59,824 nucleotides of DNA, taken from Escherichia coli (lineage in GTDB: Bacteria > Pseudomonadota > Gammaproteobacteria > Enterobacterales > Enterobacteriaceae). Position 1 is the stretch's first letter; every line of letters starts with the position of its first letter. Positions 3,708 through 19,316 of this stretch are shown piece by piece. The stretch lies in the NCBI RefSeq assembly GCF_003334255.1, contig NZ_QOWU01000028.1. One strand, written 5' to 3'. Below the pieces are notes generated by a model. The model did no database searches, had not been told where the DNA came from, and saw only the letters and a list, made by a program, of their open reading frames with translations. The position numbers and the translations under genes were made by a program.

Positions 3708-4733
3708 TTAACGCACGGGCGGTGCGTACTGAATACCGCCGTTATTCCAGAGATTATTTTGCCCACGTTTAATTTTCAGCGGGCTTTCTGAACCTACGTT
3801 ACGCTCAAAAATTTCCGAGTAGTTACCCACCTGTTTGATGATGTTATAGGCCCATTTATTATCCAGCTTCAGATCCTTGCCGTAATCGCCTTCTTTACCC
3901 AGCAGATGTGCCATATCAGGCGTTGCTGGATTAGCCGCTTTTTCATCGACGTTCTGGGAATTGATGCCCATCTCTTCAGCATTCAGCATGGCGAAAAGCG
4001 TCCAGCGTACAATCGAGAACCATTCATCATCGCCACGACGAACTACCGGACCAAGCGGTTCTTTTGAGATAACTTCCGGTAAGACAATCCATTCAGCTGG
4101 GTTGCTTAATTTGATGCGCAGGGCATACAGTTGTGATTGATCCGAGGCCAGCGTATCGCAGCGACCAGATTCCAGTGCCTTCGCTGATTCGTCAGAGCGA
4201 TCGAAAGTCACCGGTGTGTACTTCATATTGTTTGCCTTGAAGTAGTCGGCGACGTTGAGTTCGGTATCAGTACCCGCCTGAATACAGACGGTAGCGCCAT
4301 CCAGTTCTTTCGCGCTTTTTAGCCCCGCTTTATCGTGCGTCAGGAAGCCAATGCCGTCGTAATAAGTGACGCCGGTAAATGCCATTCCCATCCCGGCATC
4401 GCGAGATGAAGTCCAGGTCGTATTACGGGAGAGCAAATCCACCTCCCCTGACTGTAAAGCGGTGAAGCGTTCTTTTGCAGTGAGCGGGGTATATTTCACT
4501 TTCGTGTCGTCACCAAATACAGCAGCGGCAACACCACGACAAATATCAACATCAATACCTGAAAACTTACCGTCAGCATCGGCATAAGAGAACCCAGGTA
4601 ATCCATCACTGATCCCGCATTGCACAAAACCTTTTTTCTGAACGGCATCAAGCGTCGCGCCAGCATGCGCCTGATTTGCAACGGCAAGCAGCACGCTGGC
4701 GGCAGCCAGTGTGGCTATCATCATCTTTTTCAT
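3708..4733 (-). CDS. yhdW: Periplasmic amino-acid-binding protein of ABC transporter
   Basis: 341-aa ORF with N-terminal signal peptide MKKMMIATLAAASVLLAVANQAHA; first gene of the yhdWXYZ cluster. Confidence 0.85.
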   Translation of the reverse strand: MKKMMIATLAAASVLLAVANQAHAGATLDAVQKKGFVQCGISDGLPGFSYADADGKFSGIDVDICRGVAAAVFGDDTKVKYTPLTAKERFTALQSGEVDLLSRNTTWTSSRDAGMGMAFTGVTYYDGIGFLTHDKAGLKSAKELDGATVCIQAGTDTELNVADYFKANNMKYTPVTFDRSDESAKALESGRCDTLASDQSQLYALRIKLSNPAEWIVLPEVISKEPLGPVVRRGDDEWFSIVRWTLFAMLNAEEMGINSQNVDEKAANPATPDMAHLLGKEGDYGKDLKLDNKWAYNIIKQVGNYSEIFERNVGSESPLKIKRGQNNLWNNGGIQYAPPVR

Positions 4734-10309: not shown

Positions 10310-10972
10310 ATGGCAAAAAGAACCAAAGCCGAAGCTCTGAAGACCCGGCAAGAACTGATTGAAACTGCCATCGCCCAGTTTGCGCAGCATGGCGTAAGCA
10401 AGACGACGCTCAACGACATTGCCGACGCCGCTAACGTTACGCGTGGCGCTATCTACTGGCACTTCGAAAACAAGACTCAACTGTTTAATGAGATGTGGTT
10501 GCAACAGCCTTCATTGCGGGAGTTAATCCAGGAACACTTGACGGCTGGATTAGAGCATGACCCGTTTCAACAATTGCGTGAAAAATTGATTGTCGGCTTG
10601 CAATATATTGCCAAAATTCCCCGCCAGCAGGCGTTGCTGAAAATCTTATATCACAAATGTGAATTTAATGATGAGATGCTGGCCGAGGGAGTGATACGCG
10701 AAAAGATGGGCTTTAATCCGCAGACTCTCCGCGAAGTATTGCAGGCGTGTCAGCAACAAGGTTGTGTAGCAAATAACCTCGATTTAGATGTTGTGATGAT
10801 TATTATTGATGGTGCCTTCAGCGGAATTGTTCAAAACTGGTTAATGAATATGGCGGGTTATGATCTTTATAAACAAGCCCCCGCTCTGGTCGATAACGTA
10901 TTAAGAATGTTCATGCCAGATGAAAACATAACGAAATTAATTCATCAAACGAATGAATTAAGTGTCATGTAA
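10310..10972 (+). CDS. acrS: TetR-family repressor of acrEF (EnvR)
   Basis: 220-aa ORF with N-terminal TetR helix-turn-helix (TRQELIETAIAQFAQHGVSKTTLNDIADAANVTRGAIYWHF). Confidence 0.95.
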   Translation: MAKRTKAEALKTRQELIETAIAQFAQHGVSKTTLNDIADAANVTRGAIYWHFENKTQLFNEMWLQQPSLRELIQEHLTAGLEHDPFQQLREKLIVGLQYIAKIPRQQALLKILYHKCEFNDEMLAEGVIREKMGFNPQTLREVLQACQQQGCVANNLDLDVVMIIIDGAFSGIVQNWLMNMAGYDLYKQAPALVDNVLRMFMPDENITKLIHQTNELSVM

Positions 10973-10974
10973 AT

Positions 10975-11154
10975 TCACATTCTGTCCTGAAAATTCAGTT
11001 CGTCACAGTTAACCAGTTTTAGTGGATTAACTGAGTTCATATTGCGGCATTTGTCTGTTTCTGTTGCCAGCAGTTCAATCCACTGCATCAGTAAAGTATC
11101 AAACAGAAAAACGAAGACAGCGAAAACGACGAGCCACCAATACTTGCGAATCAT
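10975..11154 (-). CDS. yhdU: Small membrane protein (DUF2556-like)
   Basis: Start trimmed to MIRKYWWLVVFAVFVF (59 aa) from the 68-aa ORF; single hydrophobic helix. Confidence 0.6.
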   Translation of the reverse strand: MIRKYWWLVVFAVFVFLFDTLLMQWIELLATETDKCRNMNSVNPLKLVNCDELNFQDRM

Positions 11155-11237: not shown

Positions 11238-12122
11238 TTACTTTGTAATGAGATCGGGGTCAACTTCGCTTAACCGGCTTCGTTTTGACAGGTTGCCGGT
11301 CTTTCTTTTTTTCACTTTCGCCAGTTCTTCCGCAGAGTAATGCGACGCGACATCCAGCCGTCGAAGCCCCATTTTGATGTACTCGCTGTTGATCTCAATA
11401 CCAATGAATTTTCGTCCGCTGGCGATGGCTACGGCACCGGTAGTAAAGCTACCAGCAAACGGGTCGAGAACGATATCGCCTGGGTTGGAAGAGGCGAGAA
11501 TAATGCGTTTCAGTAAGGCTTCCGGTTTTTGCGTCGGGTGGTTTTCATATTCATCCATCAAATAACGCACGCGCGGAAAATCCCAAACGTTACCCGGTAC
11601 TTTTTGATGATTGTAAGGCTGTGGAGGATTTTTGCGATAATCGATCAACGCGCGCTGCGATCCGGTTTTGGCTTCTACCAGAATAGCATCACCGTTGAAT
11701 GTGTAGTTCTTTGCGTCTTTCACCATCATCAGGATGGGTTCGTACATGGAGCCGTAGTGTTTTTTCGCCTGCACTCCAGAACTGTCATATGACCAGACGA
11801 TGCGACTTTTGATGGTAAAAAGCTTGCGGCACTGGAGATCGATAAAGGGCATGTTTTCCGTACTGTTCATGATGTACATGCTGCCCTGCTTTTTCAGAAC
11901 GCGGTGGCACTCTGCAATCACTTCAAACAGCCAGTCGATAAACAGATCTTCTTTCCAGGCTTCGATCAGACCATCAAAATTTTTACCGATGTTATATGGT
12001 GGGTCGGCAAAGATCAGATCGACACTTTCGGCGGGGATCTTTTTAAGTTCGGCAAGCGCATCACCGTGAATAATGGTCTTAGCTTCATTACCAAACCGGG
12101 TCGGTTCACATCCTGTTCTCAT
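11238..12122 (-). CDS. yhdJ: DNA adenine (N6) methyltransferase, orphan
   Basis: ORF with DPPYN motif IV of N6-adenine methyltransferases; start taken at MRTGCEP (294 aa). Confidence 0.9.
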   Translation of the reverse strand: MRTGCEPTRFGNEAKTIIHGDALAELKKIPAESVDLIFADPPYNIGKNFDGLIEAWKEDLFIDWLFEVIAECHRVLKKQGSMYIMNSTENMPFIDLQCRKLFTIKSRIVWSYDSSGVQAKKHYGSMYEPILMMVKDAKNYTFNGDAILVEAKTGSQRALIDYRKNPPQPYNHQKVPGNVWDFPRVRYLMDEYENHPTQKPEALLKRIILASSNPGDIVLDPFAGSFTTGAVAIASGRKFIGIEINSEYIKMGLRRLDVASHYSAEELAKVKKRKTGNLSKRSRLSEVDPDLITK

Positions 12123-12145
12123 GGTCACTCCCTTTGTGACACCTA

Positions 12146-12185
12146 TAAAAAAGGCGCTTCCCCATGCCGAGTAGCGCCTTTTTAA
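12146..12185 (-). terminator. Intrinsic terminator after fis
   Basis: Minus-strand AGGCGCT...AGCGCCT stem followed by a U-run, between the fis stop and the yhdJ start. Confidence 0.6.
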
Positions 12186-12207
12186 TCAAGCATTTAGCTA
12201 ACCTGAA

Positions 12208-12504
12208 TTAGTTCATGCCGTATTTTTTCAATTTTTTACGCAGCGTACCACGGTTGATGCCCATCATCAGCGCAGCACGGGTCTGGTTACCACGGGTGTA
12301 TTGCATCACCATGTCCAACAGGGGCTGTTCTACTTCAGCCAGTACCAGCTCATAGAGGTCATTCACATCCTGACCATTCAGTTGAGCAAAATAGTTCTTC
12401 AGTGCCTGTTTAACCGAGTCACGCAGGGGTTTTTGGGTTACCTGATCCTGAGAGTTAACGGTAGAAACGGTCAGTACGTCAGAATTTACGCGTTGTTCGA
12501 ACAT
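12208..12504 (-). CDS. fis: Nucleoid-associated protein Fis
   Basis: 98-aa [42 protein letters not shown]...[13 protein letters not shown]. Confidence 0.98.
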
Positions 12505-12529: not shown

Positions 12530-13495
12530 TTACGCAAAATTTTCGAAGTATGCCTCCAACGCCTCCAGCTGTTCGCTGGCATCCTCAATGGCGTTGAATG
12601 TGCGCCGAAACTGGTCATTTGGAGCGTGTTCCTGGAGATACCAGGAAACGTGTTTACGTGCAATTCGGTACCCTTTTGCCGGACCATAAAAGTCATGCAG
12701 TTCCCGAACGTGCGCGCAAAGCAAGCGCTTAACCTCTGCCAAAGGCAGCGGGGGCAGCAACTCCCCAGTGTCCAGATAATGCTGGATTTCCCGAAAGATC
12801 CAGGGTCTTCCCTGAGCTGCGCGGCCTATCATCAGGGCATCCGCCCCTGTATAGTCGAGCACAGCTCTGGCTTTAAGCGGGTCAGTAATGTCGCCATTCG
12901 CGATAACCGGAATGGAAACTTTCTGCTTAACTGCCCGAATACTGTCGTACTCAGCTTCTCCATTGAACAAACAGGCGCGTGTACGGCCATGAATGGTCAG
13001 AGCCTGAATGCCACAGTCTTCAGCCAGTTGGGCAATCTCTTCGCAGTTACGGTGTTCCGGTGCCCAGCCGGTGCGAATCTTCAGGGTAACAGGAACGTCC
13101 ACTGCATTGACGACCTCGGTAAGGATCGATTTAACGACATCCGGGTACTGCAAGAGGGCTGAACCTGCGAGCTTGCGATTCACTTTTTTAGCCGGGCAAC
13201 CCATATTGATATCAATAATCTGGGCACCGCTTTCCACGTTAATACGTGCTGCATCTGCCATTTCTTTCGGATCGCTACCAGCAATTTGCACGGTGCGAAT
13301 ACCGGGTTCATCAATGTGCACCATCCGTAAACGAGATTTGTCGCTTTCCCAAACCTGTGGGTTAGAAGACATCATCTCGGATACTGTCAATCCGGCTCCC
13401 ATCTCGTAGCACAACGTCCGAAAAGGTCTGTCTGTAATGCCAGCCATGGGCGCTGCGATCAGGCGATTTCTGAGCTGATATTGTCCGATGCGCAT
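12530..13495 (-). CDS. dusB: tRNA-dihydrouridine synthase B
   Basis: 321-aa ORF immediately upstream of fis with Dus-family sequence. Confidence 0.95.
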
Positions 13496-13562: not shown

Positions 13563-13823
13563 AGGCCAAACTTTGACCAATCCTCTGAGATGGATCAAAG
13601 AATTGCATTTAAAATGAGCGTGGTGCGATAATTACTCATAAAAATCATCATATTAGAAAATAGTGACTAAAATTTACACTCAAAGAAATTTGAGTAAGTT
13701 CTCAATTTTTCTTTATGAATGAAAATTTTGGCACGCAAATTTGCGTAAATAATCGGCAAATTTACGTGCCTTTTGTGAGCTTGCTCGCACTTCGCCCCGC
13801 GTCACCCTACGGCGATGCGAAGG

Positions 13824-18339: not shown

Positions 18340-19316
18340 GAGTGGGTTCCGTACTCTTTGTTTAGTGTGATTGTGACAGGCGTTTCACCGCCGTCTGTAA
18401 AGCGTATGCCCCGACAGCTGTATGCATAGCGATAAATTCCAGCAGGCCGGGACGCCGGTCTATTTTGCCCCAGAGTGTCAATGTTAGACTTGACGGACAT
18501 TGTGCAGCGATCTGCTGCTATCCTCCGGCAAAAAACAAAATATACCTTCGTTGCGCCAATGTCACCTTTTCCGCAGCGCAAAAACTGCGTCAGGGAGGAC
18601 GAGGTCGCACATTATAACGATTTCGTAGCAATTGGCAGCTAAATACTGGTCTTATCAGGGAAGATAATCAACAGCTAACATGTAAATAACCTTCAACACC
18701 GTGTAATTTGCAACAAGCCGCACAATTCACGAAATTAGCGCCATCATCGACGGAACTTCTTATAACGTAAGGTGAAAAGCTGAAAAGCCAGCCCTGCGAA
18801 GATGAGGGGCTGCAATGAGATAATCTTCACAGACCACAAATAATGTAGGGATGCCAGGATCGCGACAAGATAGACGACATTACGCAGCGGTTGCTGGGGA
18901 TTACCCAATTTTCACTGCATCGTCTGGATAGATGTGAATGCTAAAGCACGCAAAATTAACCGATTGACAATGCTCAGCATTAAATAGGTTCGAGTGATTA
19001 ATTTGTAGTCAAACAAAATCAGATTATTCACCCCATGGTACCAGAAATAAGTAAGGGGCTAAGCGTAGCGTCGCCCAGGCAAAGCACCATAAACCTAACA
19101 GGCGACGGAGGCGTATCAATAATAGCTGTTTAGTGGAGTATCAATGCGCATCAATTTGTGGTCAGTCGAAATCATGACTTTCCAGTTTGGATGATGTTGT
19201 ATAACTTCCTGACCAAGGTGTTCGACGAAAGCTGTCCGGCTAACCGCTTTTCCCGTTAACCGATTGAATAATGATTTCAAAATGAGTTCCCTCTCTTATT
19301 ATTCCCTGCTAAATGG

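Follow-up and report, generated by a model that had tools for sequence, protein, structure and literature searches.

Escherichia coli yhdJ most probably encodes a solitary beta-class ATGCAT methylase that was captured from a restriction-modification (R-M) system, is fed by leak-through of the transcriptional terminator in front of it, and is more likely protective than regulatory; we put the probability of this joint explanation at roughly 0.85. Since 2007 the literature has covered the gene together with its target, its lack of a partner and its K-12 silence, and yhdJ is of low interest as such. The puzzle is that a silent methylase without a phenotype stays intact in almost all E. coli, Salmonella and Citrobacter, and the evolutionary link and the promoter-less placement described here are small additions that make this retention testable.

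The open reading frame is yhdJ of E. coli K-12. It lies on the minus strand of the window (the whole stretch of 59,824 nucleotides, 59.8 kb, that was analysed), a strand that the earlier note had not given with its coordinates, and it runs from the ATG at 12122 to a TAA stop at 11238-11240. An alternative in-frame GTG at 12128 would give a protein of 296 aa, two residues more, while RefSeq uses the ATG (product adenine-specific DNA-methyltransferase, WP_001258895.1). The NCBIfam equivalog NF008572 matched the protein with 589.5 bits (cut-off 292, E 9.7e-178, residues 1-294 on model positions 1-294), and Pfam PF01555 (N6_N4_Mtase) matched residues 34-251 on model positions 1-218 of 221 with an i-Evalue of 3e-64. 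These matches, the RefSeq annotation and the motif at residues 40-44 bear out both the gene name and the class, an N6-adenine methylase with DPPYN, that the earlier note had proposed. The 1701 bases of DNA around yhdJ were 100% identical to K-12-type E. coli chromosomes, and some match to this surrounding 1.7 kb was present in 5426/5426 complete E. coli genomes. The main features of the gene are:

11238..12122, minus strand: yhdJ (M.EcoKII) coding sequence, 294 aa, beta-class N6-adenine DNA methyltransferase (NF008572, PF01555, RefSeq WP_001258895.1)
11991..12005, minus strand: catalytic motif IV, D40-P-P-Y-N44, inside the block LIFADPPYNIGK, invariant in 18 family members
11436..11471, minus strand: AdoMet-binding motif I, V218-LDPFAGSFTTG-229 (VLDPFAGSFTTG), conserved block VLDPFxGSFTT

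In an alignment of the 18 family members the catalytic blocks were invariant, and motif IV lies N-terminal to motif I, which is the beta-class motif order. YhdJ carries out AdoMet-dependent methylation at the second adenine of ATGCAT, a specificity that we take from the literature.

The neighbours fis and yhdU, which the earlier note had named, are those annotated in RefSeq:

12530..13495, minus strand: dusB, first gene of the dusB-fis operon, from which transcription would most likely reach yhdJ (RefSeq)
12208..12504, minus strand: fis, upstream of yhdJ on the same strand (RefSeq)
10975..11154, minus strand: yhdU (DUF2556, 59 aa), downstream of yhdJ on the same strand (RefSeq)
10310-10972, plus strand: acrS (RefSeq)

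Beyond yhdU lie acrS and acrEF, and on the other side prmA, panF and accBC. The order fis - yhdJ - yhdU was found in the window and in the E. coli, Salmonella and Citrobacter loci, and yhdU accompanied yhdJ in all fis-linked loci whose sequence extends far enough; in E. albertii only fis-yhdJ was visible, the contig ending within yhdJ. The Fis protein is 100% identical in Salmonella and Citrobacter. In Salmonella a further gene that E. coli is without, encoding a 699-aa MHYT-GGDEF-EAL protein, separates yhdU from the acrS homologue (L003 6283-8382; L094 and L097-L099 5165-7264), and the region downstream of yhdJ-yhdU is therefore a variable spot. In E. coli strain 58-3 (NZ_CP050036.1; L002 5262-7441) the whole acrF-acrE-acrS-yhdU-yhdJ block is gone, replaced by an IS1A copy and a 446-aa DUF6602 gene that ends about 620 bp from fis; the acrF-to-yhdJ block is thus dispensable. 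Farther away in the window, the gene upstream of yhdX (about 3709-4733), for the substrate-binding protein of an amino-acid ABC transporter, carries a frameshift annotation in an identical K-12-type record (L001 4810-5834). The tRNA-Thr (GGT) at 119-194 belongs, in the matching RefSeq record, to the last part of an rRNA operon, where it is flanked on each side by a 5S rRNA gene.

No restriction gene was annotated in RefSeq within 12 kb on either side of yhdJ, and when the whole 59.8-kb window was searched by tblastn for relics of an R or C gene, a C protein and four endonucleases of the EcoT22I family as queries gave nothing but noise (best E about 0.5-1 overall and about 0.7-1 for the endonucleases). 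The earlier note's statement that there is no restriction partner nearby therefore stands, in cis only, and because the R and C genes were searched for in the window and are absent, yhdJ is not a complete R-M system. The 83-nt spacer between yhdJ and yhdU held no endonuclease relic. We also considered yhdU itself as such a relic and rejected it, as it has no similarity to the endonucleases and shares its strand with yhdJ, unlike the convergent R gene of the closest relatives.

As the search covered 59.8 kb and cognate endonuclease genes do exist in the species, one might argue that yhdJ is not truly an orphan and that its restriction partner is encoded elsewhere on the chromosome. We regard this as extremely unlikely. 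The cognate endonuclease family occurred in just 3/5426 complete E. coli genomes, always on small plasmids of 4.4-6.2 kb and each time with its own methylase. NsiI cleaves the DNA of K-12 except when yhdJ is overexpressed (PMC4444293), which means that an active ATGCAT endonuclease would be lethal in K-12, and the published list of K-12 restriction genes (Table 2 of PMC4444293) contains no ATGCAT endonuclease. For K-12 the idea of a hidden partner is effectively refuted.

The relatives of YhdJ are found in R-M systems. In a protein search the family outside the fis locus reached 66-77% identity in Citrobacter, Yersinia, Marinobacterium, Photobacterium, Shewanella and Nostoc. In each locus of these relatives that we read, the methylase (70-77% identical to YhdJ where linked to the endonuclease) has a convergent, 3'-overlapping open reading frame of 343-346 aa that has no Pfam match; most of these loci also carry a small HTH (C-protein-like) gene. 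The partner matched the PADLOC model REase_II PDLC03455 at 1.7e-71 and is named 'type II restriction endonuclease' by several sources, and the best PADLOC model for YhdJ was MTase_II PDLC03299 (517 bits). The E. coli endonuclease cluster comprises 299 contigs, with one member named 'Type II restriction endonuclease EcoT22I'. M.EcoT22I is routinely used to mimic M.AvaIII of Anabaena (PMC3265524), and this equivalence fits the cyanobacterial relatives of YhdJ. The R-M loci have the following settings:

Marinobacterium and Photobacterium: islands that carry a large serine recombinase and interrupt a ChlI/comM-type gene
Nostoc: methylase tail-to-tail with the endonuclease, on a cyanobacterial chromosome
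Citrobacter freundii: P4-like island
E. coli: 4.4-kb Rop/Mob (ColE1-type) plasmid, methylase 75% identical to YhdJ

The R-M islands of Marinobacterium zhoushanense (L004 677-8466) and Photobacterium phosphoreum (L006 1086-8192) are about 6 kb long and split the ChlI/Mg-chelatase (comM-like) gene into a long part and a part of 67-74 aa, so that two distant genera share the target. No statement of the relation between yhdJ and EcoT22I was found in the literature searched, which was covered in part. The relation is probably familiar to REBASE curators.

The linkage to an endonuclease was then counted in a census that combined scanned genome contigs, in which few enterobacterial representatives were listed, with exact-protein look-ups for the enterobacteria. 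By identity to YhdJ and by linkage to fis, the loci divided as follows:

70-77% identical methylases, 8 loci with 5 distinct methylases: endonuclease in all, convergent (among the loci listed)
52-63% identical methylases, 30 loci: endonuclease in 21/30, directly downstream on the same strand (among the loci listed)
below 40% identical methylases, 47 loci: endonuclease in 0/47 (among the loci listed)
fis-linked methylases, 5 loci: endonuclease in none
fis-linked methylases, 9 further loci, called genes only: endonuclease in none; order fis - methylase - DUF2556

When 25 methylases were compared by neighbour joining (200 bootstraps), ten orphans of Escherichia, Salmonella, Citrobacter and Intestinirhabdus fell into one clade with a bootstrap value of 100, the linkage to fis being verified for 4/10 of them. 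This clade was sister to the enterobacterial endonuclease-linked methylases (93), and both together (100) were nested among endonuclease-linked methylases. The fis-linked orphans have lost the R and C genes without trace. These results are most simply explained by a single ancestral capture, in which the methylase half of an ATGCAT R-M system would have been placed directly 3' of the fis terminator, probably in the ancestor of Escherichia, Salmonella and Citrobacter.

A relative without yhdJ, whose Fis protein is 100% identical, locates this junction. Its similarity to E. coli stops right after the U-tract of the terminator, which puts the junction just behind the fis terminator, on its 3' side. 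In this genome (GCA_043358095.1; L096 3798-7297) the fis terminator is conserved with two base changes in loop and stem, and yhdU is missing too; three open reading frames (72, 765 and at least 314 aa) that match nothing in Pfam lie downstream of fis on the opposite strand.

The activity of the enzyme differs between hosts. According to three papers (PMC4444293, PMC9150344, PMC13337833), all citing Broadbent 2007, overexpressed M.EcoKII methylates the second A of ATGCAT and the native K-12 copy is silent, in agreement with the ATGCAT methylation and the very low laboratory expression that the earlier note had given. Protection of DNA from NsiI by plasmid-borne yhdJ, and no phenotype for a K-12 yhdJ deletion, are also described (PMC4444293). 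SMRT sequencing of ER2796 gave no m6A signature at 1644 ATGCAT adenines (PMC4444293), tests of 6mA detection in K-12 use the motif as their negative control (PMC9150344), and among 84 E. coli strains yhdJ is prevalent and core ATGCAT methylation sites are absent (PMC13360123). In S. Typhimurium, YhdJ is active: 513 ATGCAT sites are methylated, and all of this methylation is lost on yhdJ deletion (PMC9239280). Only 61% of the Salmonella ATGCAT sites are methylated at some growth stage, with more sites methylated in mid-exponential than in late stationary phase (bioRxiv 10.64898/2026.01.27.702048), and both growth in SPI-2 medium and mutation of metJ increase ATGCAT methylation (PMC9239280). The methylome analysis that the earlier note had suggested as a check has thus largely been done already, by SMRT in K-12 and by SMRT and nanopore sequencing in Salmonella (PMC4444293; PMC9239280; bioRxiv 10.64898/2026.01.27.702048).

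The DNA between fis and yhdJ contains two features that bear on expression:

12147-12183, minus strand: intrinsic terminator of dusB-fis, AAAAAGGCGCU...AGCGCCUUUUUU, identified by folding, strong, ending 24 nt before the yhdJ ATG
12128..12134, minus strand: Shine-Dalgarno-like AAGGGAG, 5 nt before the ATG, with the alternative GTG at 12128 inside it

Across E. coli, E. albertii, Salmonella and two Citrobacter species the terminator varies at one place only, a substitution in Citrobacter FP75, and the yhdJ ATG lies 22-25 nt past it in all five yhdJ-carrying species. A consensus scan of the minus strand from 12123 to 12500 found nothing promoter-like. A TCGGCA-17-TATAGG element overlapping the terminator, picked out by eye, was rejected as weak (4/6 matches per hexamer, final T missing). 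With a terminator 24 nt upstream and no promoter-like site, leak-through of the fis terminator is the likeliest source of yhdJ transcription, and as there is no terminator-like fold between yhdJ and yhdU, this transcription probably continues into yhdU. The conditional regulation that the earlier note had suggested from the place of yhdJ after the dusB-fis terminator would fit this anatomy, in which the ATG stands 24 nt past the U-tract with no promoter-like site. Read-through would give low expression coupled to dusB-fis, which is consistent with the partial, mid-exponential-biased methylation in Salmonella. The low YhdJ level that would result from leak-through may be sub-stoichiometric for about 800 genomic sites, and such a shortage could leave methylation undetectable in K-12 and partial in Salmonella.

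Several observations speak against simple read-through. The fis terminator is identical in silent E. coli K-12 and active Salmonella, and since neither SPI-2 medium nor the metJ mutant is a high-fis condition, the raised ATGCAT methylation there is not what simple read-through would produce. In a dusB-fis deletion yhdJ mRNA was unchanged versus the control strain (PMC4751926), a comparison that is unclean because the control carried a cat cassette between fis and yhdJ (PMC4751926). A difference in the ribosome-binding site as the cause of K-12 silence was rejected, as AAGGGAG of E. coli looks better than UGGAA of Salmonella; comparison of terminator and ribosome-binding site thus gave no explanation of K-12 silence versus Salmonella activity. 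Codon 2 of yhdJ (window 12117-12119) is the rare AGA in E. coli and E. albertii, AAA in Salmonella and AAC in Citrobacter, and the rare codon may add a little to poor translation in E. coli.

Folds of the yhdJ leader in four species were no better than those of shuffled sequences (z -0.8 to +0.9). A UCACA in the leader and a UGUGA in codons 5-6 (window 12100-12140, minus strand; equivalents in L003, L012 and L042) show no change among five species; in the minimum-energy folds they pair and enclose the ribosome-binding site and the AUG, with energies no better than those of shuffles. Because the two are invariant, their pairing is not assessable by covariation, and coding conservation alone may account for the invariance. 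A search of Rfam returned only a spurious, sub-threshold miRNA match, mir-7918 at window 13726-13775 (27 bits against a gathering score of 80), which is a chance match in the region upstream of dusB.

What yhdJ is kept for is the less certain part of the explanation. Of 5426 complete E. coli genomes, 5418 have a match to the gene and 5388 have 80% or more of it. Its conservation in Salmonella has been surveyed (PMC9239280); the 'YhdJ-like' of PMC5935869 is a domain label only, and that paper is irrelevant here. In species pairs involving Citrobacter, where dS could be estimated although synonymous sites are near saturation, dN/dS was 0.065-0.093. Between E. coli and Salmonella, with synonymous sites saturated, dN was 0.156 for yhdJ, 0.033 for prmA and 0.019 for dusB. 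The gene is dispensable yet, judging by these substitution rates, under purifying selection. A simple account of yhdJ would be that it is a functionless relic of a decayed restriction system, kept as harmless and barely expressed. This account draws on the K-12 silence and the phenotype-less deletion (PMC4444293) and on natural losses, namely those of strain 58-3, where a deletion associated with IS1 spans yhdJ to acrF, of E. coli strain EC25, which has an IS inserted in the yhdJ interval, and of S. Paratyphi A, which carries a truncated allele (PMC9239280). Purifying selection argues against a pure relic, however, as do the invariant catalytic motifs, the retention of at least 80% of the gene in so many E. 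coli genomes and an enzyme that is active when expressed (PMC4444293) and natively active in Salmonella (PMC9239280), and we consider the relic account unlikely.

YhdJ might instead be an epigenetic regulator like Dam or CcrM, its position after fis providing a growth-phase-dependent ATGCAT methylation that switches target promoters. An orphan methylase at a conserved chromosomal position would suit this role, no other motif of the Salmonella methylome is as condition-dependent as ATGCAT (PMC9239280), intergenic regions are enriched in ATGCAT sites that lack methylation (bioRxiv 10.64898/2026.01.27.702048), and the closest solved structure is CcrM (6pbd, 3.6e-33). Yet deletion of yhdJ in Salmonella had almost no effect on transcriptome, growth, motility or virulence (PMC9239280; bioRxiv 10.64898/2026.01.27.702048): 12 transcripts changed in LB and 0 in SPI-2 medium, and fitness in mice was not reduced (PMC9239280). 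Differential methylation at ATGCAT does not go along with changes in expression (PMC9239280; bioRxiv 10.64898/2026.01.27.702048), and the undetectable methylation in K-12 and the missing core sites in the 84 E. coli strains likewise count against a regulator, as does the failure of YhdJ to reach the CcrM equivalog cut-off (135 bits versus 830). Within the window ATGCAT is neither enriched nor unusually avoided, with 9 sites observed against 14.2 (zero order) or 10.5 (Markov) expected, which is mid-range among the 64 six-base palindromes; an alternative expectation of 26 apparently counted both strands of the palindrome. The nearest site, at 18422, is 6.3 kb from yhdJ, so that the gene does not regulate itself through its own motif. 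Taken together, a regulatory role is quite unlikely. These counts (9 versus 10.5-14.2) were also considered as a footprint of past restriction, and avoidance or enrichment of this kind was rejected.

We favour protection as the function of the captured methylase. Its selected role could be to shield the chromosome against incoming or departing EcoT22I-type R-M elements; in our analysis this is likelier than gene regulation and may be the most likely selected function, at a modest probability, because a silent or partial methylase would shield poorly from the cognate endonuclease. In its most specific form, the proposal is that yhdJ serves as a chromosomal 'vaccine' against EcoT22I/AvaIII-type R-M elements on enteric small plasmids and islands, fed by leak-through of the fis terminator. 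This form is tentative and, as it stands, rather unlikely. If it were true, a burst of enzyme would come in outgrowth, when replication is fastest, and ATGCAT methylation would blunt both the establishment shock and post-segregational killing; it would also explain the purifying selection on a seemingly useless gene.

Finally, we compared yhdJ with known systems. From YhdJ/M.EcoKII of K-12 there is no difference: it is the same gene, with DNA identical to the K-12 type, the same fis-yhdJ-yhdU synteny and an end-to-end match to NF008572. Methylases of the M.EcoT22I/M.AvaIII type, which form the sister and outgroup clades, share 70-77% identity with YhdJ over the whole length, identical catalytic motifs and the same reported target ATGCAT (PMC3265524 for the equivalence of EcoT22I and AvaIII; PMC4444293 for YhdJ). 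Their genes lie on mobile DNA, tail-to-tail with an overlapping endonuclease gene of about 345 aa and usually with a C-protein gene, whereas yhdJ, with neither an R nor a C gene, occupies a fixed core-genome position after fis, and the C-terminal tail of its protein is shorter and different. CcrM of Caulobacter (GANTC) is, like YhdJ, an orphan with the same beta-class PF01555 domain and DPPY. It differs in its target and in its length of 366 aa compared to 294 aa, the C-terminal extension being absent from YhdJ, which scored 135.4 bits against the 350-position CcrM equivalog NF050803 (cut-off 830); unlike CcrM, YhdJ is non-essential and has no known cell-cycle or regulatory role (PMC9239280). 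YhdJ is thus 'CcrM-like' in its catalytic domain only. Dcm is also a chromosomal solitary methylase that is conserved in enterics, and it shares its specificity with the plasmid-borne EcoRII R-M system of the same species. Dcm is reported to protect against killing on EcoRII loss (cited in PMC11602122). While Dcm is expressed and methylates essentially all of its own sites and yhdJ is silent or partial, the layout of yhdJ and EcoT22I parallels that of Dcm and EcoRII: a solitary methylase in the core genome, with sister genes next to an endonuclease on small plasmids of the same species.
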